DNA of 64,000 nucleotides from Escherichia coli (lineage in GTDB: Bacteria > Pseudomonadota > Gammaproteobacteria > Enterobacterales > Enterobacteriaceae): NCBI RefSeq assembly GCF_013122565.1, contig NZ_CP053258.1, one strand, 5' to 3'. This document shows, in pieces, positions 23,385 through 58,584 of this stretch (positions within the stretch are counted from its first letter, which is position 1; each line of letters begins with the position of its first letter). The position numbers and the translations under genes are program-made. The notes under the pieces are model-generated. The model saw only the letters and a program-made list of their open reading frames with translations. It did no database searches and was not told the origin of the DNA.

Positions 23385-23411
23385 GTGGGTTTTTTGTTGC
23401 CTGAAATTTAT
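23385..23411. repeat. attL core direct repeat gtgggttttttgttgcctgaaatttat
   Basis: 26/27 identical to copy at 58558..58584. Confidence 0.75.
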
Positions 23412-35781: not shown

Positions 35782-36127
35782 TCTCTGCTCCTGTTGATAC
35801 GGAAAGGGAAACAGGCACACCGTTATTCCGCCGCCCGGTCAGCTCCACCACCATTGAACCGTCAAAATTGCTGTTGATGGTGATGGAATCCAGCGTCATC
35901 CTTGGCTCCCAGCGACTCAGCGCCACATACACTGCCGACATGACCTGCAGGTGTAATGCCGGATTTTGTGGCTGGTCTATCAGTGCCGACAGCAGGGAAC
36001 CATATTCCCGACGGGCAATGCGGCTACCCTGCGGCGTCAGCAAAATGTCCCGCACCGACTGGCGCAGATGGTCCGTGTCTGTAATAGTTTTTCCGTTGTT
36101 CTGACTCATGCCGATATACAGCGTCAT
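35768..36127 (-). CDS. W: baseplate protein W
   Basis: 119-aa ORF at P2 W position. Confidence 0.8.
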   Translation of the reverse strand: MTLYIGMSQNNGKTITDTDHLRQSVRDILLTPQGSRIARREYGSLLSALIDQPQNPALHLQVMSAVYVALSRWEPRMTLDSITINSNFDGSMVVELTGRRNNGVPVSLSVSTGAENGSD

Positions 36128-36702
36128 ACCGGGCCTCCGGTTGTATCGCCGCCTTTCAGGACGCCAGTATGCTGATGCGCATCAACCACGATCCCGTTAG
36201 AACTCATCGCTCCGCCGCCCTGGGTAACGCCACCATTGATCACAACTTCGCTGTTAATGCGCGTGCGGTCAGCCTCCAGTACAAACTCACTGGTTTTCAG
36301 GGTGATATTGTCAGCGGCCTCAATGACCATGGATTTGATGCCCCTGACATACCAGCGCCCGGTGGCGGGTTCGTATTCAAACCAGCCACCGTCTGGGTAC
36401 TCAACCACGTTGCCGTCCTCAGAGTCTGAAGGTGGTGGAAACTGATTTGAGTAGACAGCAGGCAGGGCAAACGCGGTTTCCAGATTGCCACCCAGGCTGA
36501 ACAGCACAACCTGCTCGCCCACAGACGGTTTCCACCAGGTGCGCGATTTGCCCGCGCGCAGTGTCAGCCAGTTAATCCAGTTGGTTTCGAGGTCGCCCGT
36601 TTTCACCCGACACAGCCAGTTTTCCCGGTCCACTTCGGTGACTACACCTGTGCGAATCAGATTGGTGATAAGGCGCATGATTTCGGTTAGTTGTGCATTC
36701 AT
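36124..36702 (-). CDS. V: baseplate spike protein V
   Basis: 192-aa ORF at P2 V position. Confidence 0.8.
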   Translation of the reverse strand: MNAQLTEIMRLITNLIRTGVVTEVDRENWLCRVKTGDLETNWINWLTLRAGKSRTWWKPSVGEQVVLFSLGGNLETAFALPAVYSNQFPPPSDSEDGNVVEYPDGGWFEYEPATGRWYVRGIKSMVIEAADNITLKTSEFVLEADRTRINSEVVINGGVTQGGGAMSSNGIVVDAHQHTGVLKGGDTTGGPV

Positions 36703-36750
36703 GTCGACGATATTTGCACAAACATATATTGTGGGACATTGAGTCAGAAA

Positions 36751-36768
36751 TGTATGACTTACTACACA
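36751..36768 (-). promoter_or_regulatory. Ogr-type late promoter dyad TGT-N12-ACA upstream of V operon
   Basis: tgtatgacttactacaca about 50 bp upstream of V start. Confidence 0.5.
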
Positions 36769-36795
36769 ATGTTTATCCGCGCAAAGGAGTTACAG

Positions 36796-37701
36796 ATGAC
36801 ACAAATCGGTATCTATGGATATTGCTTCACGAAAGAATTTACTTTTAAAGGAGGGACACTGATACCTCGTTACAAATCCTTTAAGGAACTAAAAGAGAAT
36901 AAATGCGATGGAAGCGAATATGTATTAAGTGGATTTTTCTCTCCCGCACATGCTTCTGAAAACACCGTCACTCAAATAATTTATGATCTTTCAGCTGTTT
37001 TAAGTTTCATTGAACAAAAAAATGTAATCATATCAAACTTCCTAGAGGAACATGAAACACCTGAAAAGTTAGATAATAATTTCCCACTAAAATTGAAGTC
37101 AAAAAGAAAGTCATCACTAGGAATAATTGTTGAAGATTACTTCTCTGAAAAGAGTCGCTCAGCGTTCATTGAGCTTGCGATGGATAAACTTCATAGAAAT
37201 ATTAATTCTCATCAAAACCCTTTTAGAACTGCGTTCTATAAGTCTATATTTTCTTTTAGGGAAAGAATGGACTATGTAGATGTTAAATACTTCCTTAATT
37301 TCTCAGCATTAGAATCCCTGTGCAGATATATCGATAACGAGTCGACATCTAGTTATACACCACAAATAATTACAAAGGTTTTAAAAGATTATGGTTTTAA
37401 TGTATCTAAAGAAGGCAACCCTGTACCACAAAGAAACGTGATTCACTATTGCACGCTTCGAAACTCTCTATTCCACAATGGAAATTATATTGGATACATT
37501 AAGAAAGATGATCCAAGCAGTATCATTAAATTAAGTGATTATTATTCAAATCTAAATTTACTTTTACCTTTAGTATTAATGAAATATATAGGATTCGATG
37601 ATGGATTAATTAACTGGGACTCATGGATAGACTATGAACCATTTCTCGCCCTCAGGCCTAAAAACTTAACTCCATCGAATGGTAAACAATCAATTAGATA
37701 G
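36796..37701 (+). CDS. hypothetical moron protein with Rx4H (HEPN-like) motif
   Basis: 301-aa ORF (MTQIGIYGYCF...), RBS aggag upstream, about 33% GC, opposite strand to flanking tail genes; ..CTLRNSLFHNG.. motif. Confidence 0.6.
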   Translation: MTQIGIYGYCFTKEFTFKGGTLIPRYKSFKELKENKCDGSEYVLSGFFSPAHASENTVTQIIYDLSAVLSFIEQKNVIISNFLEEHETPEKLDNNFPLKLKSKRKSSLGIIVEDYFSEKSRSAFIELAMDKLHRNINSHQNPFRTAFYKSIFSFRERMDYVDVKYFLNFSALESLCRYIDNESTSSYTPQIITKVLKDYGFNVSKEGNPVPQRNVIHYCTLRNSLFHNGNYIGYIKKDDPSSIIKLSDYYSNLNLLLPLVLMKYIGFDDGLINWDSWIDYEPFLALRPKNLTPSNGKQSIR

Positions 37702-38136
37702 CCAGCGCAATAATACATCGTGGGTTAAGGATTCTACGTCATCATTAATACCTAACAAACGACGCTCTGCGTAACGGACCTCCGGTCCTTTGCGACTAAC
37801 GCGATCACGCAGGCCGTAATGGTGAACACGGGCAATACGCTGCACCTTGCCTTCAAACTGTACGCTGGCAGAGTCGGCGCTGGCGGCAGTTTTCAGGTAT
37901 TTTGTGGTGCGCAGCTTTGCAAACATCTGACGTTTGATGCGCCCCTTCTTGCTACGTGCTGTTACCCTGCGCGGTTCATAACTGCTGCCATCTGGATTGC
38001 GCTGCATCCTGATATTCTGCTGCTGTGTCCGGCGCAGTTCCTGCGCCAGCTGGCGCATCATGCGGCTTCTCGTGGCTGGTTCCAGATTCGCCAGCAAGGC
38101 ACTCAGCCAGTCGTCCACCTTCTGCAGTTCAGCCAC
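37690..38136 (-). CDS. S: tail completion protein S
   Basis: 148-aa ORF at P2 S position. Confidence 0.8.
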   Translation of the reverse strand: MAELQKVDDWLSALLANLEPATRSRMMRQLAQELRRTQQQNIRMQRNPDGSSYEPRRVTARSKKGRIKRQMFAKLRTTKYLKTAASADSASVQFEGKVQRIARVHHYGLRDRVSRKGPEVRYAERRLLGINDDVESLTHDVLLRWLSN

Positions 38137-38581
38137 GTTTCACCGTCCACATTTCTTCAGGTGCATCAGGTTCCGCTACAGCTTCAACGCTCGACACACT
38201 GCCGTCAGTGCTGACCAGCACACGCTCCGTCAGTTGCAGGTTCAGGCTGATATCACAGACATCGTTGCGCAGAATATCCACCTCAAAGGTGAATAGCTTT
38301 TCCCGTAACGCCAGGTTATTGATAGCATCGGGCTGGTTATCCCTCAGCCACAGCAAAACCGGGGCCATCAGCAGATTCTGGTCGCCGCTGAAATCCTCAA
38401 TCACCACGTTCAGGGTGTAACGGTACTCCCATGACATGGAGCTGGCCCCCGTGGCAACCAGCGAACCGTTATCCACAAACAGATGCAGTTTGTCCGGGTT
38501 ATTGCGGACATAAGGCACCGCTTTATTGAGGGCGTGGCGCAGGGATTGTGGTTTGTTCACTGTTTCGCTCCTGACACGCAA
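38129..38581 (-). CDS. R: tail completion protein R
   Basis: about 150-aa ORF at P2 R position; start uncertain. Confidence 0.75.
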   Translation of the reverse strand: MRVRSETVNKPQSLRHALNKAVPYVRNNPDKLHLFVDNGSLVATGASSMSWEYRYTLNVVIEDFSGDQNLLMAPVLLWLRDNQPDAINNLALREKLFTFEVDILRNDVCDISLNLQLTERVLVSTDGSVSSVEAVAEPDAPEEMWTVKRG

Positions 38582-38813
38582 TAATCATGTCCACTTTGTC
38601 TGCACAGACCGCCCAGGCGGCCTCCGTTTCATCCAGCAACGCGTTCAGATTACCGTTAGTGCGCGGCGTTGCCTGATCCAGCCGACACGGCGTCACTCGC
38701 GGACAACCACTGACGGTAAGCTGCACCTCCGGTGAGTGTCGGACGTTCCCGCAGCCGGATAATGTCAGCAGGCAAAGGAGTATCAGCCCAGCGGCGTAAA
38801 TCCTCGTTCTCAC
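38523..38813 (-). CDS. lysC: o-spanin lipoprotein (LysC/Rz1-like)
   Basis: 96-aa ORF with lipobox LTLSGC, Pro-rich, overlapping lysB in another frame. Confidence 0.65.
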   Translation of the reverse strand: MRTRIYAAGLILLCLLTLSGCGNVRHSPEVQLTVSGCPRVTPCRLDQATPRTNGNLNALLDETEAAWAVCADKVDMIIACQERNSEQTTIPAPRPQ

Positions 38814-39084
38814 GTTTCAGTTCCTCAATCCGATGTTGTCGTTGTCTCAGCAGTGCACTGGTCTGTTCTGCTTCGGCGTAGAGCCGCGCCTGCTCCCGGT
38901 TGTTGGTTTCAGCCAGAATGGACAGACTGATCAGCTGGCTATTTTTCTTCGTTAGTTCGTGCGCTTTACTTTTCAGCGCCGCGCGCTGCGTTTCGATGGT
39001 ATGGCTGGCGCTGTTAAGCCGCCACGACTGCCAGCCCAGCGCAACGAGTGCCAGCGCCGCCACTACCGCCAGCGCACGTGTCAT
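38656..39084 (-). CDS. lysB: i-spanin (LysB/Rz-like)
   Basis: 142-aa ORF with N-terminal TM and coiled-coil. Confidence 0.75.
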   Translation of the reverse strand: MTRALAVVAALALVALGWQSWRLNSASHTIETQRAALKSKAHELTKKNSQLISLSILAETNNREQARLYAEAEQTSALLRQRQHRIEELKRENEDLRRWADTPLPADIIRLRERPTLTGGAAYRQWLSASDAVSAGSGNAAH

Positions 39085-39596
39085 AGTCCAGCTCCTTTAA
39101 GGCACCAGGCCATCTCCCGCGCACGGCGGTTATCCAGCCCCTGATTAAACACACCTTTTACATACACCCAGCGCGGCAACTGTCGGCACGCATCCGCCCA
39201 GCGCCGCTGATTGAGCAATTTCACCAGCGTGGAACTACAGGCATTGCCCGTCCCCACGTTGAAGGCAAACGACACCGTAGCGTCATACACCTTCTGCGGT
39301 GGCTGTTGCTTCACACACCTTTCCAGCGCCCGCTCCACACGCAGCACGTTGGAGATCAGCCCTTCTGCTGCCTGTCGCTCCGTGATTGTTTTGCCGGGAA
39401 TGACGCCCGATGTATTACCAATGCCGTCGGTCCAGACACCCGCGCTGCACTGATACGGCTGCAGACGACAGCCTTCGTAATCGGCGATCAGTTTCAGTCC
39501 CTCCACGGAGGTGTGAAGCTGCTGAAAACCCGGCAGCGTGGCAGCAATAGCCAGCACAGCCCCGACAAGGCAGCGTTTAACGATTGATGGATTCAT
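39081..39596 (-). CDS. K: endolysin (lysozyme family, N-terminal signal-anchor-release-like segment)
   Basis: 171-aa ORF with hydrophobic N-terminus (CLVGAVLAIAATL) followed by lysozyme-like domain. Confidence 0.8.
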   Translation of the reverse strand: MNPSIVKRCLVGAVLAIAATLPGFQQLHTSVEGLKLIADYEGCRLQPYQCSAGVWTDGIGNTSGVIPGKTITERQAAEGLISNVLRVERALERCVKQQPPQKVYDATVSFAFNVGTGNACSSTLVKLLNQRRWADACRQLPRWVYVKGVFNQGLDNRRAREMAWCLKGAGL

Positions 39597-39792
39597 AGTC
39601 CTCCCGCGAGATCTGCCCGTCGCGCAGAAGCTGGTAGGCTTTGTGTTTGTAGTACCAGTTGATAGCCAGCATCAGCACACCGATCATCAGGCCGCCCAGC
39701 GTTGAGGCATCCTTGATGGACAAATCACCCAGCCAGGCCAGCACAACGGCGATGCAATACGTGATAAAGGCGCTGATTCGCTCAAGCGTCAT
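39577..39792 (-). CDS. holin (two-TM, pinholin-like)
   Basis: 71-aa ORF with two hydrophobic helices and charged C-terminus, directly upstream of endolysin. Confidence 0.7.
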   Translation of the reverse strand: MTLERISAFITYCIAVVLAWLGDLSIKDASTLGGLMIGVLMLAINWYYKHKAYQLLRDGQISREDYESINR

Positions 39793-39795
39793 AAT

Positions 39796-39999
39796 TCAGT
39801 CCCATAGCTGGACGGTCTGCACGGTGGTGGTGGTCGGAATGTCCGGCAGCTCCACCTGCAGCCCGTGAGGTAAAAAGGGGCCAAATTCGGCAAGCCCCGG
39901 ATTTGCCTTCAGTACCTGCTCCGTGACACCCTGCGTGCGCCCGTAATGACGCCAGCAAAGCGCGTCCACCGTGTCATACTGATGCGCACGCACTTTCAT
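39796..39999 (-). CDS. X: tail protein X
   Basis: 67-aa ORF at P2 X position. Confidence 0.8.
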   Translation of the reverse strand: MKVRAHQYDTVDALCWRHYGRTQGVTEQVLKANPGLAEFGPFLPHGLQVELPDIPTTTTVQTVQLWD

Positions 40000-40526
40000 C
40001 AGATAAGCTCCACTGTGCAGTGCGGCGCATCCTGTACCCGGCAGATGGCCCAGCGGGCGTCACGCCACAAATCACCGCTGGCTTCTGCCAGTTCCTCGCC
40101 CCGCTTCACACCGGATGCCGTGGCGTCATAGTCCTGGTAACGTTCGTTGAGCATGGCGCGAGCCCAGCAGTAAACCGCGTTGAAATAGTGCTGAATTCGC
40201 TCGCTTTTCCCGTCCAGCTGTTCCGCCGGAACCTCTGCCAGCGAGGCATATCCCAGCATCTGCTGGCGTCTGCGAAACTCATACAGCTCTGCGTTGACCT
40301 CCGAAATTGCCGACAGCGCAACCTGCTTTAAACGCGGCTGCGTCACCGTGCCGTCAGTGCGCATCACACTGCGAAACTCCGACAGGTCCACATCAGGCCA
40401 GAACGGCGTATTTCTGATGATTTCCGCCTGTTCCGGTGCCTGTTCTGGCGCAACAAACTTCATGCTGCTTTCTCCTGAAATAGAGGGCGGTGGACGGGGT
40501 TTTGATGTGGCAGTGCCTTTCGCCAC
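39999..40526 (-). CDS. L: head completion protein L
   Basis: 175-aa ORF at P2 L position. Confidence 0.8.
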   Translation of the reverse strand: MAKGTATSKPRPPPSISGESSMKFVAPEQAPEQAEIIRNTPFWPDVDLSEFRSVMRTDGTVTQPRLKQVALSAISEVNAELYEFRRRQQMLGYASLAEVPAEQLDGKSERIQHYFNAVYCWARAMLNERYQDYDATASGVKRGEELAEASGDLWRDARWAICRVQDAPHCTVELI

Positions 40527-40558
40527 CCCGTGCCGCCCGTGCGCGGGGGCACGTTCTG

Positions 40559-41209
40559 TCAGCGGCTGTCATTGCGCAGTCTGCGCTCCAGCTGCTGTTT
40601 GTCTTTTTTCACGCCACAGCGGGGATCGAGCTGTAACGCATGGTTGAGATGATTAAGGGCGGAAGCCGGATTGCTTTCACTCAGGACAGCGCCAATCGCT
40701 TTATGCAGACGCGCCCGTGACTGGTCCGGCATATCCAGACCGTCTGTCAGCTCCAGCGTCTGCAGCAACAGATCGGCATCAAAGCCGGTGGCGGCAAGCA
40801 TTGCGCTCTGCGCGGCGTCTGCCATTTCCTCTGCCAGCACGGTCTGCACGTTGCGGTTACCCAGCGGCATCACCCAGCCATGACGCAGGGCATGACGCCC
40901 GATCTCCAGCGCCCCGGCATAATCTCCGGCATCAATACGCCACAGCATCACGTACATCAGCACGTCATCCTGTTGAGCGCCTCCGGCAGCCAGGACACCC
41001 TCTGCCCAGGCGGCGTACTTCGGCAGCAGCTCCACCTTGATTTCCGCTTTTTTGACCGTGGACTGAACGCCCTTGAGACGGCGGCGGTCTTCCGCCAGTT
41101 GCAGCAGCATCAGGTCATAGCCCGATGCGTGGCGAACACTGCCGCCCTCGCGGGCGGCCTGTTCAGCCTGAACGCGCAGGCGATGCTGCCGTGCGGGACT
41201 CAGGCTCAT
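40559..41209 (-). CDS. M: terminase small (endonuclease) subunit M
   Basis: 216-aa ORF at P2 M position. Confidence 0.8.
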   Translation of the reverse strand: MSLSPARQHRLRVQAEQAAREGGSVRHASGYDLMLLQLAEDRRRLKGVQSTVKKAEIKVELLPKYAAWAEGVLAAGGAQQDDVLMYVMLWRIDAGDYAGALEIGRHALRHGWVMPLGNRNVQTVLAEEMADAAQSAMLAATGFDADLLLQTLELTDGLDMPDQSRARLHKAIGAVLSESNPASALNHLNHALQLDPRCGVKKDKQQLERRLRNDSR

Positions 41210-41212
41210 GGA

Positions 41213-42271
41213 TTACGCTCCGGTTTCGGCTGCGGCGGCGCTGAAATCACCAATCTGGATATTTTCCACCAGTGCGGCGCAGCGGTAGTCCTCAACCACA
41301 TAGGCTTCGTTAACGGATTCAAAGTTTTCAATCCGGTCACGTTTCGGGTTGTCGATAACTGAACGGCGGCGGGTGTCTTCCTGCCAGTAGATGGACAGGT
41401 TATCCAGACGGGTGATCAGCAGCGCATTCGGCGGGAAGAACGGCGCACGCACGGCCTGCAGGCCACCCATGCGTTTCTGACTGATGATCATATCGGCAGC
41501 CAGTTTTTCACTGTTTTCCTGCTCTTTGTTGACCAGCGGGAAATACTTGTCAGACAGCAGTTCACGACCGCAAATCACCACCAGATCGTCATCGTCCTGG
41601 TAGACCACGTCGATAAGCTCATTGACGGCATCCATCACCACGGCGTCCAGGTTGGCATATTCGCCACCTTTCCCGACTTTCACTGCGCCCGGTGTGGTTT
41701 CACCGCCCGTGGTGGTGCTGCCCATGACGTGATCCGGTGCATCCTCACGGATTTTCTGCAGCCAGCCTTTATTCACATCCTGCAGTAGCGGGTTTTCGCT
41801 ACGGTTGGAGGTTTTCGCACGCTTCACGCCGTTAAAGCCGATCATGATGCGGTCCAGTGCCTGACGTTTCACGATGGCGTCACGGATACGCACCTGAAAA
41901 TCCTGAAACTTCGCCCACAGGTCCAGCTTCGCGTAGGTCAGCACCGTGTCAAAGTTGGTCTGCTCGCATTTATATTCCACATCGACCATCAGCGTCGGAT
42001 CGACAGGTTCACGCTCTTTCGCGGTGGTATCAGTGGTTCCGGCAATGGTGCTGCCAACTCCCAGCCCCAGCAGCTGACCGGACTGCTCAGTCACTGGCGT
42101 GACGTTAATCAGCGTCAGGAAAGCGGCGGACTGCTGGATCTGGTCTTCCAGCGTCTGCTGCACAGACGGCTCCACGGTGAATTTGCTGGACAGTTCTTCA
42201 ACTGCCACACCGTTCAGACGCGCCAGCTGCTGCAGGTAAGCGTTAAAAGCAAAGCGGGTATTCTTCTTCAT
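41213..42271 (-). CDS. N: major capsid protein N
   Basis: 352-aa ORF at P2 N position. Confidence 0.85.
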   Translation of the reverse strand: MKKNTRFAFNAYLQQLARLNGVAVEELSSKFTVEPSVQQTLEDQIQQSAAFLTLINVTPVTEQSGQLLGLGVGSTIAGTTDTTAKEREPVDPTLMVDVEYKCEQTNFDTVLTYAKLDLWAKFQDFQVRIRDAIVKRQALDRIMIGFNGVKRAKTSNRSENPLLQDVNKGWLQKIREDAPDHVMGSTTTGGETTPGAVKVGKGGEYANLDAVVMDAVNELIDVVYQDDDDLVVICGRELLSDKYFPLVNKEQENSEKLAADMIISQKRMGGLQAVRAPFFPPNALLITRLDNLSIYWQEDTRRRSVIDNPKRDRIENFESVNEAYVVEDYRCAALVENIQIGDFSAAAAETGA

Positions 42272-42287
42272 CGGGTTTTGTGCTCCA

Positions 42288-43121
42288 TCAGCAATTGGTC
42301 AGAGTGTCAGCGGGGGCGTTACCGCCTGTTGCACGCTGGCGGTAGTCCTGGCGGCTGTCTTCATGACTTAGCTTGTCCACCAGTTCGTTAAAGGCGGTCA
42401 GCTGTGCCTGCAGGGCAGTCTCCAGCTCAGACAGGCGTTCTTCCTGCTCAGACAGGGATTTTTCGGTGCGTGCGCTCAGGTTCTGCTGCTCAGTGGCGAC
42501 CAGCTCCACGGCCTTATGCACATCAGAGAACCGGGCGTCATCGGACTGCTCTTTTTTGGTAAACAGCGCCGTGACGCGGGCAAACAGGGACGGTTTGTCG
42601 TCTTGGATTTCTTCCAGTTCGATCACCGTTTCCTCTGCAGCGGTAAAGAGATTGGCAGGATTCTGCTTGCGGTTTGCCAGCGGGTTATGGGCTGCACTGG
42701 CGCTGAATGTCAGCATTTCCGTACCCAGACTGGCAGGGTCATCAGTGGCAGCCAGGCCGACCAGGTAGGCTTTGCCCGTATCAGCGAACTTCGGGCTGAC
42801 TTCCATAGAGGTGAATAATTTCTGGCCTTTTTTCACCAGTTCCACCAGGGACTCCGTTGGCTCAACGTCGGCATACAGCGCCATCTTGCCTGCCAGCGGA
42901 CCTTCCGTGATTTCTTCAGCAAACAGCGCCGTCACCTTGCCGTAGCGGTTAAAGGTGCTGTCCGGCAGATAAGACTTGATGTGCTCAAGGTTAATCAGCG
43001 CGGTATACACCGCCGGGTTGTAGCTGGCTGCCATCTGTTCCAGCCATTCACGCTGGATTTCGCGTCCGTCGGTGGTGGCACCTTCCACCCCGATGCGAAA
43101 ACGCTTTGCTTTCACTGTCAT
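42288..43121 (-). CDS. O: capsid scaffolding protein O
   Basis: 277-aa ORF, acidic coiled-coil, P2 O position. Confidence 0.8.
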   Translation of the reverse strand: MTVKAKRFRIGVEGATTDGREIQREWLEQMAASYNPAVYTALINLEHIKSYLPDSTFNRYGKVTALFAEEITEGPLAGKMALYADVEPTESLVELVKKGQKLFTSMEVSPKFADTGKAYLVGLAATDDPASLGTEMLTFSASAAHNPLANRKQNPANLFTAAEETVIELEEIQDDKPSLFARVTALFTKKEQSDDARFSDVHKAVELVATEQQNLSARTEKSLSEQEERLSELETALQAQLTAFNELVDKLSHEDSRQDYRQRATGGNAPADTLTNC

Positions 43122-43199
43122 GAGCCGTGCTCCGTTAGAAAAAACTTACTGGAGCCTTATGGTTGCGGTGATGGGGGCAGTGAAACAATGCGCGGTATT

Positions 43200-43217
43200 T
43201 GTACCGACAACCACACA
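43200..43217. promoter_or_regulatory. Ogr-type late promoter dyad TGT-N12-ACA in divergent O/P control region
   Basis: tgtaccgacaaccacaca between O and P starts. Confidence 0.5.
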
Positions 43218-43263
43218 AACCGCAGGCGGGGAAAGCCTTCATTCAAGGCTGTAGGTTTGTGCC

Positions 43264-45030
43264 ATGAACACCACACTGACACCCGCAGATCTCGATCCCC
43301 GTCGGCAGGCCATGCTGCTGTACTTTCAGGGATACCGCGTAGCCCGCATTGCTGAAATGCTGGGCGAGAAAGTTGCAACCGTTCACAGCTGGAAAAAACG
43401 CGACAAGTGGGGTGACTATGGGCCGCTGGATCAGATGCAGCTCACCACCGCCGCACGCTACTGCCAGCTCATCATGAAGGAGCACAAAGAAGGGAAAGAT
43501 TTCAAAGAGATTGACCTGCTGGCGCGCCAGTCTGAGCGCCACGCGCGGATCGGCAAGTTTAACAATGGCGGCAACGAATCCGACTTAAACCCTAACGTCG
43601 CCAACCGCAACAAAGGCCCACGCCGTCAGCCGGAAAAGAATGTTTTCACCGATGAGCAGATTGAGAAGCTGGAAGAAATCTTCCATTCCTCCATGTTCAA
43701 CTACCAGCGCCACTGGTGGGAAGCCGGAAAAACCAACCGCATCCGCAACCTGCTGAAGTCACGCCAGATCGGCGCGACCTTTTACTTTGCCCGTGAAGCC
43801 CTGATTGACGCCCTGCTGACCGGACGTAACCAGATTTTCCTTTCCGCCAGCAAGGCACAGGCCCACGTCTTTAAGCAGTACATCATCGACTTCGCCAAAG
43901 AAGTGGAGGTGGAGTTGAAAGGCGATCCGATGGTGCTTCCTAACGGGGCCACGCTTTACTTCCTCGGCACCAATGCCCGCACGGCCCAGAGTTATCACGG
44001 CAACCTGTATCTGGATGAATATTTCTGGATACCGAAATTCCAGGAGCTGCGCAAAGTGGCTTCCGGTATGGCTATTCACAAGAAATGGCGACAAACCTAT
44101 TTTTCCACGCCATCCAGCCTGACACACAGTGCTTATCCGTTCTGGTCCGGTGCGCTATTCAACCGTGGGCGCAACAAAGCCGATAAGGTGGACATCGACC
44201 TGTCCCACAGCAATCTGGCCCCCGGCCTGCTGTGCGCAGACGGGCAATACCGCCAGATTGTCACCGTGGAAGATGCAGTGCGCGGCGGATGTAACCTGTT
44301 CGACCTCGATCAGTTACGCATGGAGTACAGCCCGGACGAATACCAGAACCTGCTGATGTGCGAGTTTGTGGACGATCTCGCGTCTGTGTTCCCACTCAGC
44401 GAGCTGCAGGCGTGCATGGTGGACAGCTGGGAAGTCTGGACCGACTTTCATGCACTGGCACTGCGCCCATTTGGCTGGCGCGAAGTGTGGATCGGTTATG
44501 ACCCGGCGAAAGGTACGCAGAACGGCGACAGTGCCGGATGCGTGGTGGTGGCACCGCCAGCCGTGCCGGGCGGCAAGTTCCGCATTCTTGAGCGTTACCA
44601 GTGGCGCGGGATGGACTTTCGCGCCCAGGCTGACGCCATCAAAAAACTGACCGAACAGTACAACGTGACCTATATCGGCATCGACTCAACCGGCGTTGGT
44701 CACGGGGTTTATGAGAACGTGAAAGCGTTCTTTCCTGCCGTCCGGGAGTTTGTCTACAACCCCAACGTTAAAAACGCCCTGGTACTCAAGGCCTACGACA
44801 TTATCAGCCACCGCCGTCTGGAGTTTGACGCCGGGCACACCGACATTGCGCAGTCATTCATGGCAATCCGTCGCGCCACCACCGCCAGTGGCAACCGCCC
44901 GACCTATGAAGCCAGCCGCAGCGAAGAAGCCAGCCACGCCGATCTGGCCTGGGCAACGATGCACGCACTGTTTAACGAACCGCTGCAGGGCGAATCCGCC
45001 AATACCAGCAATATTGTGGAGATTTTTTGA
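43264..45030 (+). CDS. P: terminase large (ATPase) subunit P
   Basis: 588-aa ORF at P2 P position. Confidence 0.85.
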   Translation: MNTTLTPADLDPRRQAMLLYFQGYRVARIAEMLGEKVATVHSWKKRDKWGDYGPLDQMQLTTAARYCQLIMKEHKEGKDFKEIDLLARQSERHARIGKFNNGGNESDLNPNVANRNKGPRRQPEKNVFTDEQIEKLEEIFHSSMFNYQRHWWEAGKTNRIRNLLKSRQIGATFYFAREALIDALLTGRNQIFLSASKAQAHVFKQYIIDFAKEVEVELKGDPMVLPNGATLYFLGTNARTAQSYHGNLYLDEYFWIPKFQELRKVASGMAIHKKWRQTYFSTPSSLTHSAYPFWSGALFNRGRNKADKVDIDLSHSNLAPGLLCADGQYRQIVTVEDAVRGGCNLFDLDQLRMEYSPDEYQNLLMCEFVDDLASVFPLSELQACMVDSWEVWTDFHALALRPFGWREVWIGYDPAKGTQNGDSAGCVVVAPPAVPGGKFRILERYQWRGMDFRAQADAIKKLTEQYNVTYIGIDSTGVGHGVYENVKAFFPAVREFVYNPNVKNALVLKAYDIISHRRLEFDAGHTDIAQSFMAIRRATTASGNRPTYEASRSEEASHADLAWATMHALFNEPLQGESANTSNIVEIF

Positions 45031-46108: not shown

Positions 46109-47869
46109 CTATATGCTGCATATTTTTTTATAATGTTCAAAAACATCTTTAAAAGTGTTGAGTATTATTTCAAAACCACTAAAATCAACTTTTCGTTTTT
46201 TATCCCTAACTACTTTCACAGAGAAAACATGTTTCCCATATTCAGTTTTTGAGTCCCCATCGTTCTTTTTGTTAAATTTTTTACCACCAAGAATAGTTGA
46301 TAATACATCATGAGTAAAAAGATCTTCCATCGCAGTCTGCTCACCAGTAGCACTTAAAGGCGTTAGAATGATATAGAGATTTTTAAAGACATGGATAAAT
46401 CTCATTTTTCTCATTTTATTGGTATCATCGGGGCAGCTCTTAACATTATTTTTAAGGAAATTCAAAATCTCATTAGAACCAGAATCGTTGTCCAATACCA
46501 TGATAACCGGGTGCTTAGGAATGCTTCCATAGTAGCTTGAATATTCATCCATATATCTTTCGATGAATTTTTTAAGATCTGCGCTACCTCCAGACATATT
46601 AATAAAATAACTTGACTTCTCATCAGATTTAAAAATATTCAAGTTGATATCATTTCCTTTACCGTCTGTGCTTTTCTTGAGCAACTCAGGAAATTTGGCA
46701 GAAAGTGAACGAATAGCTGATTTTAAATATACTCGATCAGTTTTGCCTTCTGTCAAGATTGTCGGGGAAGCATGTCCATGAAAAAACTTGTAGTAAATAA
46801 ATTTACTATATGCCTTCTCTCGTACATTCAGCTTTAACCTGTAGTTTTTTAATGTAATATGAATAGGCGCATATTTTTCAGGCTGTTTACTTATTTTATC
46901 TTGTATGTTATTAAATTTATCAATCTGGTCAATAAACCCAAATCTTCCCTCTAGTTTTTCGATACTCCCCACGACTAGCTTACCATCTTCATCAGGTAGC
47001 TTATATTCTCCCTTACTATAAAGTGAATGAGCTAATGCTCTTGTTTTATTCGAATATTTCCTATCAACGTTAACAAATCTATTTATAGTAAGTCCCGTAA
47101 CTTCTTGTCTCGTGGATTTGTACGAGATCCTTGTTTTAGCATCATTAATATCAAAACCAGCACGTTTTATTTCACTGACAAGAATGCTCCCCAAGACAAC
47201 CCCCTCAGGAAGAGATATTGCCAAATCGGTAGGAAATTCTTTTTTATTAGTTGAAAACGTGATGTCATCGGCATAACGACTATATGAACAACCTAAACTC
47301 TTTGCTAATTTAGCTAATCTAATATCCATAATGCTACAAATTAAGTTTGTTATCACTGGAGAACACGGGCTACCCTGAGGCAAACTTCCCTTATAGCATG
47401 CGGCTTTAGCTAAAGTAGTGGCGACAATCGGATTTAATAAGAAATCCCTATTGGATAGGAAGTACCCTCTCACTCGCCCAAAATTAAAGCTTTTGAAAAA
47501 ATCCTTAAGATCAATATTGAGTATTATATTTTTCCCACGATGTCTGAAAGCATTGGAAATTATTGACTTATTTCTTTCAAAACCAAAGGAGTAATTGTTT
47601 TTAATTTTTTTAATTTTGAAAGTTTCATCTCTACACTCCATTAAAAGATCGGCTATTCGTCTTTGGAGATCTTTCAAACTATCTTCTGGCGCAGAAATCA
47701 ATCTGACTCCCTTACCTTTTTTTGGAATAGAGAAATCTTTATACTGATTATCAGTACCAATTCTGTAAAGAATATTCGTTAAAAACACCAACTTAACATC
47801 TAGCAATTTTGCCAAGTCAGCACGAGATGCTGCGACTTTCAAAAGTAGTAATTTAGAAGTTGCGACCAT
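46109..47869 (-). CDS. ret: retron-type reverse transcriptase with C-terminal Toprim-like domain (Ec67/Retron-Eco2-like)
   Basis: 586-aa ORF; RT motifs [12 protein letters not shown] and YADD; C-terminal ..ILTEGKTD.. and ..VLDNDSG.. resemble Toprim E and DxD motifs; about 33% GC. Confidence 0.8.
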
Positions 47870-47908
47870 AATTATATTTTATCGTAGAAGTTAGTAAGAG
47901 AGGAAGAA

Positions 47909-48037
47909 CGCATGTAGGCACTCCTTCGCACAGCACAACGGCCCTATAGCGACGAAACAAGGATGTCAGGGATGCGATTCCACCTGCCATTAAAATCACT
48001 GGTTGTGATACACAACCAACAAATCTGCCTACATGCG
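47909..48037 (-). ncRNA. msr-msd: putative retron msr-msd non-coding RNA
   Basis: 12-bp perfect inverted repeats cgcatgtaggca (47909..47920) and tgcctacatgcg (48026..48037) flank a 105-nt region 40 nt upstream of RT start; G follows a1; internal hairpin ggttgtg-ata-cacaacc. Confidence 0.5.
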
Positions 48038-48105
48038 CATAAATGAAACTACCATTTCAACGTCTTCATTTCCAGTAATATATTTCAAATATCTACACTG
48101 AGCGC

Positions 48106-48124
48106 GCGCTCGTATCCCCGCCAC
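48106..48124 (-). other. putative cos (cohesive-end) site
   Basis: Minus strand GGCGTGGCGGGGATACGAG; first 13 nt match the P2/186 cos 5' motif GGCG(A/T)GGCGGGGA as I remember it. Confidence 0.4.
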
Positions 48125-48158
48125 GCCTGCCCGCTTTATGTAGTGGTTTTCATGCAGG

Positions 48159-48228
48159 TGCATGATCTACGCAAAAGCCCGCCAGTTCTGGCGGGCCTTA
48201 GCAAAAACGATCCTCAAACGATCATGCA
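48159..48228. other. compound palindromic structure (9-bp outer IR enclosing a 9-bp GC hairpin)
   Basis: tgcatgatc...gcccgccag tt ctggcgggc...gatcatgca seen directly; function unknown. Confidence 0.4.
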
Positions 48229-48469
48229 ATCTCATGCAGCATAGACATGCACAGACGAGTAAAGCGAATCGGACCTTACGCAAGGTGAACTCCTCAGCGG
48301 GCATAATCAGTATGTCGGAAGATCTCTAAAAATAAATAATTCGGTTAACAGGTATGCTTACAAAAGCATATATTTGATTAAAAATCATGTAAGGGGGAGG
48401 ATCTCAAACTGAATCGCCACGGGTTTTACAAATTTCGATAGTCTCTCTAACGTTTCGGCTGAGGTCAAA

Positions 48470-48895
48470 ATGAAAAGCTTTTACGTATTAATTTTAATTC
48501 TGGTTGCAAGCTTTGTTAGCGTCCCAGTTCAGGCGGTAACAGCTAAAAACTATGAGAAAGGAACTAAAGCTCAACAGAAATCAATATCTTACCTTTCATG
48601 TGCATTCTATGGCAGTAGCACACAATTAGATCCTAGCTACACGGAGCAAGTACCTACAGCCGATATCAAGATATTACAGAAAGCAGCTTACCACGCTTAC
48701 AACGATGCGCTCTCATACTTTGGCTATGAGGAACCAGATCACGAACAACGCATAATTGATTATGCTGAATTTGTGGCGTCGCAAGAAGCTGTGTTATGGG
48801 ATAAGCCGGGAATGAATGGAAAGCAGGTAACACTAATTGCTCGTTCTCTCTACAATGAGAGTAACTGTAACTTGTTACTGGACTCAATTAAGTAG
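48470..48895 (+). CDS. hypothetical secreted protein (signal peptide)
   Basis: 141-aa ORF MKSFYVLILILVASFVSVPVQA...; AT-rich; opposite strand to neighbours. Confidence 0.6.
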   Translation: MKSFYVLILILVASFVSVPVQAVTAKNYEKGTKAQQKSISYLSCAFYGSSTQLDPSYTEQVPTADIKILQKAAYHAYNDALSYFGYEEPDHEQRIIDYAEFVASQEAVLWDKPGMNGKQVTLIARSLYNESNCNLLLDSIK

Positions 48896-49054
48896 GAAAA
48901 AGATGGTATTTTGCCCGTAGTTTCAACCTTAATCTCCGAACCTGTCGCAGAACGGGCGTTCACTCATCAAATAAACGCCACACCTAACGCCTCACTGTAC
49001 TCGTTGTTCAACCTTGCTGACGCCAGAACCAAGTTCAGACGCCAGCAACTTTTC

Positions 49055-49288
49055 TTAATGCAGCCAGCTGTCGTCTTCCCACACCTTCTGCATAATCTTC
49101 ATCACTTGTTTTCTTTCTTCGTCCAGTTGCAGTCCGGTCAGTTCCACACCGTTAGAGCTACCTTTGCGGATGCGAATTACCGTTTTGGGATACAGGGGGC
49201 GCAGATTGCGGTAAAGCTCGGATTCAAGGGCGTCCAGGGTAGACTGGCTAATCTTCTGCTCTTTATCGATCATTATTTCAATGCGCAT
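49055..49288 (-). CDS. DinI-like protein (Tum/antirepressor C-terminal-domain-like)
   Basis: 77-aa ORF MRIEIMIDKEQKISQSTLDALESEL...WEDDSWL resembling the DinI family; GAGGTGA RBS upstream. Confidence 0.7.
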   Translation of the reverse strand: MRIEIMIDKEQKISQSTLDALESELYRNLRPLYPKTVIRIRKGSSNGVELTGLQLDEERKQVMKIMQKVWEDDSWLH

Positions 49289-49298
49289 AAAGGTCACC

Positions 49299-49487
49299 TC
49301 AGCTGATGACATCCATTGAGCGGTTGTATTCGTGGGTTCTGATTTTTGCCATGAGTTCATCAGTCAATTCAGAAACCCACTGCAGAGCCAGCCCCTTCTC
49401 TTCATCACTACACTCACTAGCCGCTACAAGCTTAAGAAAAAAATCAATGCGCTGGAGCTTCAAAGACTCCAAAAAATAGTCCTGCAT
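49299..49487 (-). CDS. hypothetical small protein (first gene of LexA-box-associated operon)
   Basis: 62-aa ORF just upstream of the DinI-like gene. Confidence 0.5.
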   Translation of the reverse strand: MQDYFLESLKLQRIDFFLKLVAASECSDEEKGLALQWVSELTDELMAKIRTHEYNRSMDVIS

Positions 49488-55054: not shown

Positions 55055-55651
55055 ATGTCAACATCAAAGTACCCAAGTGAGATCAAAATAAATCCCAATA
55101 AAGGTGGTAAGGCTGCGATTGAGCGATTAGTCGAAGCCTATGGCTTTACGACACGACAGGCTTTAGCTGATCACTTGGAAGTATCAAAAAGCACACTAGC
55201 GAACAGGTATTTGCGGGATACATTTCCTGCTGACTGGATAATCCAATGTGCTCTTGAAACAGGAACCTCCCTCAAATGGTTAACTACCGGACAAGGCCTT
55301 AAGCAAAGCTCGCTGACAGCAGCTACAGAAGAGCTTGTTAAGTTTCGCCTTGCCGCAGGCAAAATGATTGAAGACGGTTCATATGTCTTCGATTCATCAT
55401 TTCTTCCTGCAAACCTTTCATCACCAATTGTTATTCAGGATGGACTCGTCACATACATTTGTGATCAAAAATTTTCTGAAGTACTTGATGGAAACTGGTT
55501 AATCAATATCGACGGAACCTATTCCATTCGAAAAATCACAAGGCTTCCTAAAGGAATGATTAAAATTACAACAGCAGAGAATAGCTTTGAATGTGCATTT
55601 TCTGATATTGAAGTGGTTGCTTGTATAAGAAGTACAATAGTCTCGAATTAA
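55055..55651 (+). CDS. cI: CI-type immunity repressor (186-like)
   Basis: 198-aa ORF, HTH N-terminal region; divergent from lytic operon. Confidence 0.75.
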   Translation: MSTSKYPSEIKINPNKGGKAAIERLVEAYGFTTRQALADHLEVSKSTLANRYLRDTFPADWIIQCALETGTSLKWLTTGQGLKQSSLTAATEELVKFRLAAGKMIEDGSYVFDSSFLPANLSSPIVIQDGLVTYICDQKFSEVLDGNWLINIDGTYSIRKITRLPKGMIKITTAENSFECAFSDIEVVACIRSTIVSN

Positions 55652-55671: not shown

Positions 55672-57348
55672 ATGAATTCATTTGCCATCGTTATACTCTT
55701 ATTAGCATTTCTCGCCCCTGTTCTAGCTGTAATATTATTTAAACAAAGTAAAAAACACAAAGCGGCTATAGATAACCTGACAGCTAACAACATAGCCCTT
55801 TCTAACCAACTGATTGAAAATCAAGAAAAACTAGCACAGACCGTACGAGAATTATCAGATCTTGAAGGGCGAGCAGCACCATTGTGGCAATACGAAGAAT
55901 TGCACAGCGCAGTAATGGATGCAGAGAATAAGATAAAAAATGCGGACTCAATAGCCAAGCAAAAAATAGATGAAGCCCAAATTAAGGCGGCTAAAACAGT
56001 AAACGAAGCAAATTATCAAGCTCAGATAACAATAAGCAACGCTAATAGCGAAGCTATAGCAATCACCAAAGACGCTCGCGATGCACGCCTGAAAGCCAAA
56101 GAACGTCTTGATAATGCTAATAATAAAGCAAATGAGCTAATCTCAAATGCTAATGACAATGCAGTAAAAATTATTTCTGATGCAGAAGAAAGAGCAAAGG
56201 AGATTGCTGGTTCAGCATATGAAGCTAAAGAGTTTGCAGAAAAATATGAAGCAGTTGCAAAATCAATGAAAAATAAAATTGAAGGTTATGGTGATGAATG
56301 GATCATCCCTAACCGTAGTGTACTTGATGAGCTGGCAGAAAATTATGAATTTACAGATGCAGGCAAGGAATTACAAAAAGCCAGAGAGTTAACCAAATCA
56401 TTAATAAAAACTAATAAAGCTGCTTCGTGTGATTATGTTGAGCAAAACAGGCGTAATACTGCCATAAACTTTGTTTTGGATGCCTTCAATGGAAGAGTTG
56501 ACAGTATTTTATCAAAAGTCAAACACAACAATTTTGGAAAACTTTCCCAAGAAATAAAAGATGCATTTCAACTAGTAAATTACAATGGCTCTGCCTTTAG
56601 GTCCGCAAAAATAAGTGACATCTATCTTCAGGCAAGACTCAACGAGCTAAAATGGGGTGTAGCAGTTAATGAAATTATGCTCGAAGAAAAAGAAGAGCAA
56701 AGAAGGATTAAAGAACAGCTTCGTGAAGAGGAAAGAGCTCGTAGAGAATATGAAAAAGCGATAAAAGAAGCTGAAAAAGAAGAAAAAGCTATTCAGCAAG
56801 CTATAAATAAAGCAACGAAAGAACTTATGCTTGCAAATGAAGAACAACGCTTAGCTTTAGAGCAAAAAATAGCTGAACTACAGTTAAAATATGAAGAAGC
56901 TGAAGCTAAAAATCAACGAGCTATTTCTATGGCTCAACAAACCAGATCAGGCCACGTCTATATCATTAGTAATATTGGTTCATTTGGCGAAGATGTATAT
57001 AAAATTGGAATGACACGCCGCCTTGAACCACTTGATCGTGTTCGTGAACTCGGAGATGCTAGTGTTCCTTTTTCGTTCGATGTTCATGCGATGATTTATA
57101 GTGATGATGCACCATCATTAGAAAACCATCTGCATAAAGTTTTCAACGAAAAGCAGGTCAATAAAATTAACTCACGAAAAGAGTTTTTTAACGTAAATTT
57201 AAAAGAAATCAAATCAGTTATTGAAGACATGAACATCAACGCCCACTGGACAATGTTTGCAGAGGCGAAAGAATATAGAGAGTCTCTAGCTATTGAGCAG
57301 GAGCGCAAAGCAGCCACTTCCGCCAACGATGAACTACATGTTGCTTAG
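55672..57348 (+). CDS. membrane-anchored coiled-coil protein with C-terminal T5orf172/GIY-YIG-like domain
   Basis: 558-aa ORF; N-terminal TM; long coiled-coil repeats; C-terminal GHVYIISN...YKIGMTRR...RVRELG; about 37% GC; between cI and int. Confidence 0.65.
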   Translation: MNSFAIVILLLAFLAPVLAVILFKQSKKHKAAIDNLTANNIALSNQLIENQEKLAQTVRELSDLEGRAAPLWQYEELHSAVMDAENKIKNADSIAKQKIDEAQIKAAKTVNEANYQAQITISNANSEAIAITKDARDARLKAKERLDNANNKANELISNANDNAVKIISDAEERAKEIAGSAYEAKEFAEKYEAVAKSMKNKIEGYGDEWIIPNRSVLDELAENYEFTDAGKELQKARELTKSLIKTNKAASCDYVEQNRRNTAINFVLDAFNGRVDSILSKVKHNNFGKLSQEIKDAFQLVNYNGSAFRSAKISDIYLQARLNELKWGVAVNEIMLEEKEEQRRIKEQLREEERARREYEKAIKEAEKEEKAIQQAINKATKELMLANEEQRLALEQKIAELQLKYEEAEAKNQRAISMAQQTRSGHVYIISNIGSFGEDVYKIGMTRRLEPLDRVRELGDASVPFSFDVHAMIYSDDAPSLENHLHKVFNEKQVNKINSRKEFFNVNLKEIKSVIEDMNINAHWTMFAEAKEYRESLAIEQERKAATSANDELHVA

Positions 57349-57430: not shown

Positions 57431-58486
57431 ATGGCAGTACGAAAACTAACCACAGGGAAATGGCTTTGCGAATGTTACCCCGCCGGACGTAGCGGACGCC
57501 GTGTGCGTAAACAATTCGCCACCAAAGGCGAAGCACTGGCCTTCGAGCGATACACCATGGGGGAAATAGAAGCAAAGCCCTGGCTGGGCGAATCAGTGGA
57601 TCGTCGGACACTGAAAGATATGGTTGAGCTATGGTTCAAATTACATGGCAAATCTCTTACTGCCGGACAGCATGTCTACAACAAGCTGCTGTTGATGGTT
57701 GACGCCTTGGGAAATCCCCTTGCAACTGATCTCACCTCAAAAATGTTTGCTCACTATCGCGATAAACGCCTTACTGGTGAAATCTACTTCAGTGAAAAAT
57801 GGAAGAAAGGAGCAAGCCCAGTTACTGTTAACCTGGAGCAAAGCCATCTAAGCAGCGTTTTCAGAGAACTTTCCCGCCTGGGTGAATGGACACTTCCAAA
57901 CCCATTAGAGAAGATGCGCAAATTCACTATCGCAGAAAAGGAAATGGCATGGCTTACACATGAGCAGATTATCGAATTACTGTCTGACTGCAAACGTCAG
58001 AACCCAATTCTGGCACTGGTGGTAAAAATATGTCTAAGTACAGGCGCACGTTGGCGAGAAGCAATCAATCTTACCCGCTCACAGGTCACCAAGTACCGAA
58101 TCACCTTTGTGAGAACGAAGGGGAAGAAAAACAGAAGCATCCCTATCAGTAAAGAGCTTTATGAAGAGATCATGGCGCTCGATGGGTTCAATTTCTTCAC
58201 AGACTGCTATTTTCAATTTTTATCCGTGATGGAAAAAACGTCTATCGTTCTCCCTCGCGGTCAACTGACACACGTTCTGCGCCATACGTTTGCGGCGCAC
58301 TTCATGATGTCGGGTGGAAACATCTTGGCCTTACAAAAAATTCTCGGACACCACGATATAAAAATGACTATGCGTTATGCGCATCTGGCACCGGATCATT
58401 TGGAAACGGCGCTCCGTTTCAATCCACTGGCAACGTTACCAAATGGCGACAAAGTGGCGGCAGCGGTTGGCATTACCCCGCAATAA
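57431..58486 (+). CDS. int: tyrosine integrase (P2/186 family)
   Basis: 351-aa ORF with R..HxxR..Y catalytic pattern (TGARWREA...LRHTFAAHF...MRYAH). Confidence 0.85.
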   Translation: MAVRKLTTGKWLCECYPAGRSGRRVRKQFATKGEALAFERYTMGEIEAKPWLGESVDRRTLKDMVELWFKLHGKSLTAGQHVYNKLLLMVDALGNPLATDLTSKMFAHYRDKRLTGEIYFSEKWKKGASPVTVNLEQSHLSSVFRELSRLGEWTLPNPLEKMRKFTIAEKEMAWLTHEQIIELLSDCKRQNPILALVVKICLSTGARWREAINLTRSQVTKYRITFVRTKGKKNRSIPISKELYEEIMALDGFNFFTDCYFQFLSVMEKTSIVLPRGQLTHVLRHTFAAHFMMSGGNILALQKILGHHDIKMTMRYAHLAPDHLETALRFNPLATLPNGDKVAAAVGITPQ

Positions 58487-58557: not shown

Positions 58558-58584
58558 GTGGGTTTTTTGTTGCCTAAAATTTAT
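58558..58584. repeat. attR core direct repeat gtgggttttttgttgcctaaaatttat
   Basis: 26/27 identical to attL copy; 3 bp from rcdA stop. Confidence 0.75.

Follow-up and report, generated by a model that had tools for sequence, protein, structure and literature searches.

Among the described systems closest to the locus considered here, phage P2 carries its lysis genes in the late O operon, in the order X-Y-K-lysA-lysB-lysC-R-S, followed by a terminator, orf30 on the opposite strand and V. Phage 21 pairs S21, a small holin with two transmembrane domains (TMDs), with the N-terminally anchored GH24 lysozyme R21; S21 has a dual start (the antiholin being S71) and a first TMD rich in Gly, Ala, Ser and Thr, and R21, which carries the motif E-x8-D-x5-T, is regulated by refolding of its active site. 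For the P1 endolysin Lyz, Xu et al. are said to have reported in 2005 that a disulfide to Cys44 cages the catalytic Cys51 as long as the enzyme remains tethered, and that Cys13 of the released signal-anchor-release (SAR) domain resolves the cage. In phage HP1, the holin Hol, founder of family PF16080, was lethal without lysis and without leakage of beta-galactosidase, was needed for lysis in its own host, and behaved by experiment as a pinholin, with HP1 Lys behaving as a SAR endolysin (PMC7312051). More generally, pinholin genes usually adjoin SAR endolysin genes (PMC9025707, PMC9239132). Here we compare with these systems a lysis cassette found in a 64,000 nt stretch of the Escherichia coli contig NZ_CP053258.1 (hereafter the window), where four consecutive or overlapping open reading frames (ORFs) on the minus strand, at 38523-39792, encode a holin, an endolysin, a spanin of the inner membrane (i-spanin) and one of the outer membrane (o-spanin). 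We are confident that the cassette represents the lysis module of a P2/186-like prophage, intact in appearance, and that it combines a SAR endolysin of the P1 Lyz type with an HP1-family holin and LysB/LysC spanins.

The cassette occupies the same place as the lysis genes of P2, between X and R in a late head and tail operon with the gene order O-N-M-L-X-holin-endolysin-lysB/lysC-R-S. All four of its proteins match PHROG lysis families, the matches lying far beyond chance, and each passes a curated family threshold; the preliminary description, made from the DNA letters, had already located the cassette exactly. It had also proposed a comparison with P2 Y, K, lysB and lysC. The i-spanin is homologous to P2 LysB (34% identity, E 3e-9) and the o-spanin to P2 LysC (41% identity over 92 aa, E 6e-24), and the tail genes X, R and S are orthologous to those of P2 (values for X and R in the table below; S, 38% identity). 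The holin, in contrast, is unrelated to the 93-aa P2 Y, the BLASTP alignment (E 0.002) extending across TMD residues only, and the endolysin is unrelated to P2 K, a soluble, lambda R-like protein without a TMD (BLASTP E 0.12). P2 lysA has no counterpart ORF in the cassette. Because P2 lysB, lysC, X, R and S have homologues here and Y, K and lysA do not, the cassette is, judged by its sequence relationships, a mosaic produced by a module swap, in which an HP1-type holin and a P1 Lyz-type SAR lysozyme would have replaced Y, K and lysA and the P2-type spanins were kept. In this P2-like lineage, in other words, P2-type spanins are combined with a holin-endolysin module of HP1/P1 type.

The endolysin is a GH24, or T4-lysozyme-like, muramidase (PF00959, E 4.5e-40), 99% identical to an E. 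coli 'lysozyme' cluster of 1753 members. Its closest solved structure by sequence is P1 Lyz (1XJT, E 2.1e-26; about 35% identity), and HP1 Lys is 34% identical to it (E 2e-27). Residues E41, C43, C50 and T56 align on E42, C44, C51 and T57 of P1 Lyz, so that the same catalytic and caging positions recur and the catalytic triad takes the form E-x8-(C/D)-x5-T with Cys as its middle residue. The catalytic E41, C50 and T56 and the caging C43 are invariant in the family alignment, and all seven Cys of the protein, Cys9 and C43 included, are invariant among 18 relatives of 51-93% identity; in a wider set of close homologues the N-terminal Cys is present in 115 of 119, and the caging Cys likewise.

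Upstream of the catalytic residues, the protein begins with MNPSIVKR, of which K7-R8 form a positive N-flank fitting the type II anchor orientation, and continues with CLVGAVLAIAATLPGF, the single N-terminal hydrophobic segment (C9-F24) that the preliminary description had pointed out and that hydropathy confirmed. These 16 residues are rich in Ala and Gly, half of them (8/16) being Ala, Gly, Thr or Pro, and the segment is the weakest of the four membrane segments of the cassette, with a best 17-mer Kyte-Doolittle hydropathy (KD) of 1.95 and a summed Hessa dG of +3.1. As in P1 Lyz, there is a Cys in the N-terminal hydrophobic segment, but C9 stands at its very start, three to four positions before P1 C13 in the alignment; P1 Lyz also has an 11-residue insertion in its C-terminal lobe that is missing from this enzyme. 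Where R21 has Asp in the triad and relies on active-site refolding, a cysteine cage is predicted here. Two further readings of the cysteines were ruled out, namely a Lyz103-type cage, with a Cys directly before the catalytic Glu, since residue 40 is Tyr, and a lipoprotein N terminus, since Cys9 lies before the hydrophobic run and not after it. The match to P1 Lyz, the aligned catalytic and caging Cys, the conserved Cys9 and N-terminal segment and the modelled fold discussed below support a predicted SAR endolysin of the P1 Lyz cysteine-cage (disulfide-isomerization) type, in agreement with the SAR-type label first given to it.

The holin, described beforehand as a 71-aa protein with two transmembrane helices, does have two TMDs by hydropathy, at residues 6-22 and about 30-48, and these are followed by a charged C-terminal tail (KHKAYQLLRDGQISREDYESINR), the make-up of a class II small holin. 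It matches PF16080, the HP1 holin family, at 36.7 bits (cut-off 28.8) and phrog_20 holin at E 1.9e-26, and stays below the cut-off of PF04971, the P21 S family (23.2 bits; cut-off 26). A HMMER search of the whole library returned only 40 representative relatives. When the profile built from their alignment was compared by hhalign with S21 (a sequence 100% identical to that of phage 21), the probability was 95.5% (E 1.4e-8) and the alignment spanned TMD1, loop and TMD2; with HP1 Hol the probability was 88.8%. The holin residues S30, G34 and G38, of which G34 is nearly invariant in the family, align in this comparison with G40, S44 and G48, the small residues of S21 TMD2. The small-xxx-small-xxx-small face of S21 TMD2 has a functional role. 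Like the cassette, the hol-lys region of HP1, likewise a member of the Peduoviridae, has overlapping holin and endolysin genes, no dual start and a LysB-like gene next to them, but it lies after the tail tube gene and not between X and R, and the first helix of HP1 Hol is weakly hydrophobic, that of the present holin strongly so. In P1, the partners of Lyz are LydA, LydC and LydD, which are encoded differently (PMC9025707).

The two spanins pass their family thresholds by a wide margin. The i-spanin matches TIGR03495 phage_LysB at 175.5 bits (cut-off 92.75) and phrog_89 at E 5e-46, and has a TMD at residues ~4-20, a helical periplasmic domain and no Cys. The o-spanin matches NF038368 P2_Rz1 at 121 bits (cut-off 27) and PF23793 LysC at E 4.8e-15; Gly at position +2 after the lipobox Cys21 implies that it is probably sorted to the outer membrane, and the mature protein of 76 aa has four Cys (C37, C43, C70 and C80). 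One subunit of a spanin pair must carry one or more periplasmic Cys so that a disulfide can link the two proteins (PMC6139136), and here there are four in the o-spanin and none in the i-spanin. The pair fits the two-component architecture of P2 LysB/LysC termed overlapped. The preliminary description had called the o-spanin gene embedded in that of the i-spanin; it extends 133 nt past the i-spanin stop and is therefore overlapped under the published definition (PMC6139136). In P2, lysC likewise encodes 96 aa, lies in the +1 frame and is overlapped, not embedded.

From the homologues, we infer the following course of lysis. The endolysin would be exported by the Sec system and remain anchored in the inner membrane through the weakly hydrophobic SAR segment at its N terminus, inactive as long as a C43-C50 disulfide cages the catalytic Cys50, as in P1 Lyz. 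Meanwhile the 71-aa HP1-family holin would build up in the membrane and, at a critical level, form small lesions that collapse the proton-motive force. The SAR segment could then exit the bilayer, allowing Cys9 to attack the caging disulfide and free Cys50, and the refolded enzyme would degrade the murein. Finally, the LysB i-spanin in the inner membrane and the LysC o-spanin, an outer-membrane lipoprotein, would fuse both membranes and complete lysis.

This course depends on the N terminus of the endolysin being retained. That it is an ordinary cleaved Sec signal peptide, and the enzyme a soluble periplasmic lysozyme, we consider very improbable, although some features of the segment do look the part. 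Its hydrophobic core is just 16 residues long and follows a K-R n-region, A16-I-A18 provides an A-x-A motif that might be called a signal-peptidase cleavage site, and SignalP and HMMER took the N terminus of the homologous HP1 Lys for a signal peptide (PMC7312051). Yet A16-I-A18 sits within the hydrophobic run, with no polar c-region, and cleavage would discard the invariant Cys9. Residues 1-24 are as well conserved as the catalytic body (0.72-0.74 as against 0.70 for the enzyme body). A natural comparison comes from 80 viral contigs encoding relatives of the holin, which belong mostly to one P2-like lineage, so that counts among them are not independent events: in 77, a GH24 lysozyme with the E-x-C...C motif has both a hydrophobic segment and a Cys upstream; in two, there is no lysozyme in the vicinity; and a single locus (L075) has a soluble lysozyme, which keeps the catalytic C50 but lacks, all together, a TMD, an N-terminal Cys and a caging Cys (Leu at position 43). 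In the AlphaFold2 (AF2) model of the endolysin (predicted local distance difference test score, pLDDT, 92.6), residues 11-30 are packed into the fold (pLDDT 92-95). The best fold match of the model is the full-length active P1 Lyz 1XJT (TM 0.85, 173 columns), which is partly to be expected, P1 Lyz having been in both the AF2 training set and the input alignment; the next are the full-length SAR endolysins RrrD and R21 (R21 TM 0.78), whereas the secreted SAR-less form of P1 Lyz, 1XJU, which its entry title gives as inactive, reaches a TM of only 0.58. On the strength of the conservation of residues 1-24, the joint loss in L075 and the 1XJT-like packing of the model, we argue that the N-terminal segment is probably a functional part of the enzyme rather than a discarded signal peptide, and we infer that it is not cleaved.

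For the holin, the alternative to a pinholin-like protein is a conventional class II hole-former, or one that works without S21-type exit of TMD1, its SAR partner being incidental, as with LydA and Lyz in P1; we hold this to be unlikely, although several features speak for it. Kinship with S21 is seen by profile comparison alone: BLASTP of the holin against S21 gave no alignment, and against HP1 Hol only E 0.19 at about 21% identity, so that pairwise similarity to either is negligible. TMD1 (ISAFITYCIAVVLAWLG), with a KD of 2.12 and a summed dG of -0.56, exceeds TMD2 in hydrophobicity and greatly exceeds TMD1 of S21 (KD 0.49); the fraction of Gly, Ala, Ser and Thr is 0.35, against 0.65 in S21, and among 55 family variants it is the third most hydrophobic, which is not the profile of a SAR-like TMD1. 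Since TMD1 is so strongly hydrophobic, its spontaneous exit from the bilayer, central to the S21 mechanism, appears doubtful for this holin. Nor is an antiholin evident in the cassette, the holin gene having a single ATG with no in-frame upstream start, and lysA being missing; neither the dual start nor the Gly/Ala/Ser/Thr-rich TMD1 of S21 is thus found. A SAR endolysin can, besides, be triggered by any membrane-depolarizing holin (PMC9025707). A pinholin-like nature is nevertheless favoured by membership of PF16080, with its founder lethal without lysis or beta-galactosidase leakage, and by the profile match to S21, the spacing of small residues in TMD2 included. TMD1 of S21 and of distant family members is rich in Gly, Ala, Ser and Thr, and the family forms a continuum from such S21-like segments to hydrophobic ones. 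Moreover, the sole soluble-lysozyme locus has a separate lambda S-type class I holin (PF05106) between the small holin and the lysozyme; this pattern of co-occurrence would be expected of a small holin unable to set free a soluble enzyme, and the 77 of 80 loci, although mostly of one lineage and not independent, agree with the preliminary description of the pairing as typical. Its term pinholin-like is therefore upheld by homology (PF16080 and the S21 profile) and by the partner and fails on TMD1: descent and partner justify the name for the putative pinholin, and the defining feature of TMD1 is lacking. A tentative and rather doubtful extension is that an enterobacterial branch of the HP1/S21 holin superfamily has evolved a stably embedded TMD1, gating SAR release in a manner unlike S21 and without an antiholin. 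Natural variants with and without lysA, in cassettes that are otherwise 95% identical, would lend themselves to probing the role of the lysA-like protein. Lastly, the cassette might be a defective prophage's relic that has ceased to be expressed or to function, as it sits in a prophage within the bacterial chromosome and lacks the lysA gene that most relatives carry. We regard this as extremely unlikely: none of the four ORFs is truncated, and they share 97-99% identity with those in the record of phage Cartapus, which likewise has no lysA, the Shine-Dalgarno sequences and the overlaps suited to translational coupling are intact, the prophage is complete in head, tail, replication, CI and integrase genes, with an 18-bp att repeat at both ends, and lysA of P2 is annotated as nonessential.

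The pinholin-like holin, the SAR endolysin and the two spanins are encoded in a tightly packed array (table below). The X stop codon lies 3 nt before the holin ATG, the holin and endolysin genes overlap by 20 nt, and the endolysin stop and i-spanin start share an ATGA. The o-spanin start lies in the +1 frame at an offset of 271 nt from that of the i-spanin, the two genes have 158 nt in common, and the o-spanin gene runs on into R, as the preliminary description had stated in calling it out of frame with the i-spanin gene and continuing into the tail gene. Two start codons can be considered for R, a GTG at 38560 with AGGAG 7 nt upstream and the TTG at 38581 of the longest ORF, which would give an overlap with the o-spanin gene of 59 nt. 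The GTG is most likely the start, in view of the upstream AGGAG and because the resulting overlap of 38 nt equals that of lysC and R in P2. Gene S (PF05069), a tail-completion gene, adjoins R. A promoter and terminator scan of 36000-43400 returned nothing informative within the cassette.

Features of the lysis cassette and its flanking tail genes, in positions of the window
Feature	Coordinates	Strand	Details
Tail gene X	39796-39999	-	Directly upstream of the cassette; PF05489 E 5e-34; 61% identity to P2 X
Holin	39577-39792	-	71 aa, ATG start; class II, HP1-family
Endolysin	39081-39596	-	171 aa, ATG start, GGGAGGA upstream; GH24 lysozyme, predicted P1 Lyz (SAR) type
Codons of the putative SAR segment, endolysin residues C9-F24 (CLVGAVLAIAATLPGF)	39525-39572	-	
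Codons of endolysin E41-G-C43-x6-C50-x5-T56, catalytic triad and caging Cys	39429-39476	-	
i-spanin	38656-39084	-	142 aa, AAGGAG 7 nt before the start; LysB equivalog
o-spanin	38523-38813	-	96 aa, GTG start, GAGGA 8 nt upstream; LysC equivalog, lipoprotein
o-spanin lipobox L18-S19-G20-C21	38751-38762	-	Read from the translation
Tail completion gene R	38129-38560	-	PF06891 E 2e-46; 54% identity to P2 R

The cassette is already known and is an ordinary one, correctly named by RefSeq and with a near-identical copy described. It is present in 1037 of 5426 complete E. coli genomes, where the RefSeq names are lysozyme, LysB, LysC, HP1 family phage holin and tail protein X. Among phages, Escherichia phage Cartapus (NC_070909, Elveevirus, Peduoviridae) shares 97.1% identity over the 1.6-kb stretch, and the Klebsiella phages KP12 and 4LV2017 and several E. 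coli phages carry a stretch that is 94-96% identical. The order X-holin-endolysin-lysB/lysC-R is collinear in Cartapus, KP12, 4LV2017, 813R9 and 500465-1, with 94.5-97.1% nucleotide identity among the phage matches listed. Cartapus lacks lysA, as does the cassette, whereas KP12, 4LV2017 and the E. coli phages 813R9 and 500465-1 have an extra 376-bp gene between endolysin and lysB, the product of which is a 125-aa lysA-like membrane protein (NF038378, phrog_162), and in these four phages the 5' part of lysB has diverged from that of the cassette. The KP12 cassette, 94.7% identical at the nucleotide level to the present one, has been described as one with a SAR endolysin resembling P1 Lyz and with overlapped spanins of the P2 type, and the purified KP12 endolysin gave spot-lysis (PMC9902359).

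In several deposited phage annotations, lysC is missing or the endolysin begins 13 codons too far downstream. The value of the present analysis for annotation lies in having fixed the true starts of lysC and of the endolysin (ATG 39596, with the SAR segment included), and two small questions for specialists in phage lysis are the hydrophobic TMD1 of the holin and why lysA is carried by some cassettes and not by others. Most relatives have the lysA-like gene between the endolysin gene and lysB, one example being locus L002, at 1919-2296. Many single-member 'lysozyme' ORFs of 296 aa are also present in the database; in these the endolysin frame runs on into the lysA-like gene (171 + 125 aa), and they probably represent variants due to frameshift or assembly. 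In locus L075, the five-gene cassette (2977-4671) consists of an HP1-family holin of 59 aa, the PF05106 holin, the soluble GH24 lysozyme and overlapped LysB/LysC-like spanins, a two-holin arrangement reminiscent of P1.

The P2/186-like prophage that carries the cassette is about 35 kb in length and extends from about 23385 to 58575. It is flanked by an 18-bp direct repeat, GTGGGTTTTTTGTTGCCT, at 23385-23402 and 58558-58575, the left copy of which is the terminator end of the gene for the RybB small RNA (RF00110, 23320-23398). The prophage is therefore integrated at the 3' end of rybB. Three accessory loci of the prophage, a retron, a PD-Lambda-1 gene and a 301-aa gene, are more interesting than the lysis cassette.

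The retron locus (46109-47869, minus strand) encodes a 586-aa protein in which a retron Ec67-family reverse transcriptase is fused to a Toprim nuclease, and matches PADLOC RT-Toprim_I-C at 706 bits and NF038237 at 686 bits. It lies in the low-GC gpA-gpQ hotspot, where P2 has old and tin; the hotspot has been described previously (PMC9122126). An Rfam search of 47700-48600, upstream of the reverse transcriptase gene, found no msr/msd RNA. Between the retron and the replication gene A, at 48470-49306 on the plus strand, are two ORFs of 141 and 131 aa without a Pfam or PADLOC match, of which only the first matches a PHROG (phrog_7437, unknown function); the pair may be accessory to the retron or constitute additional cargo of the hotspot.

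The second locus (55672-57348, plus strand) occupies the interval between the genes for the CI repressor (55055-55651) and the integrase (57431-58486) and encodes a 558-aa protein with DUF4041 and T5orf172/MUG113 domains that matches the PD-Lambda-1 anti-phage system (PADLOC E 3e-120). The third is an unannotated gene in the slot of orf30. A BFVD search with this 301-aa ORF gave no significant match; its confident AF2 model resembles HEPN proteins, and the R-x4-H motif is invariant in its family.

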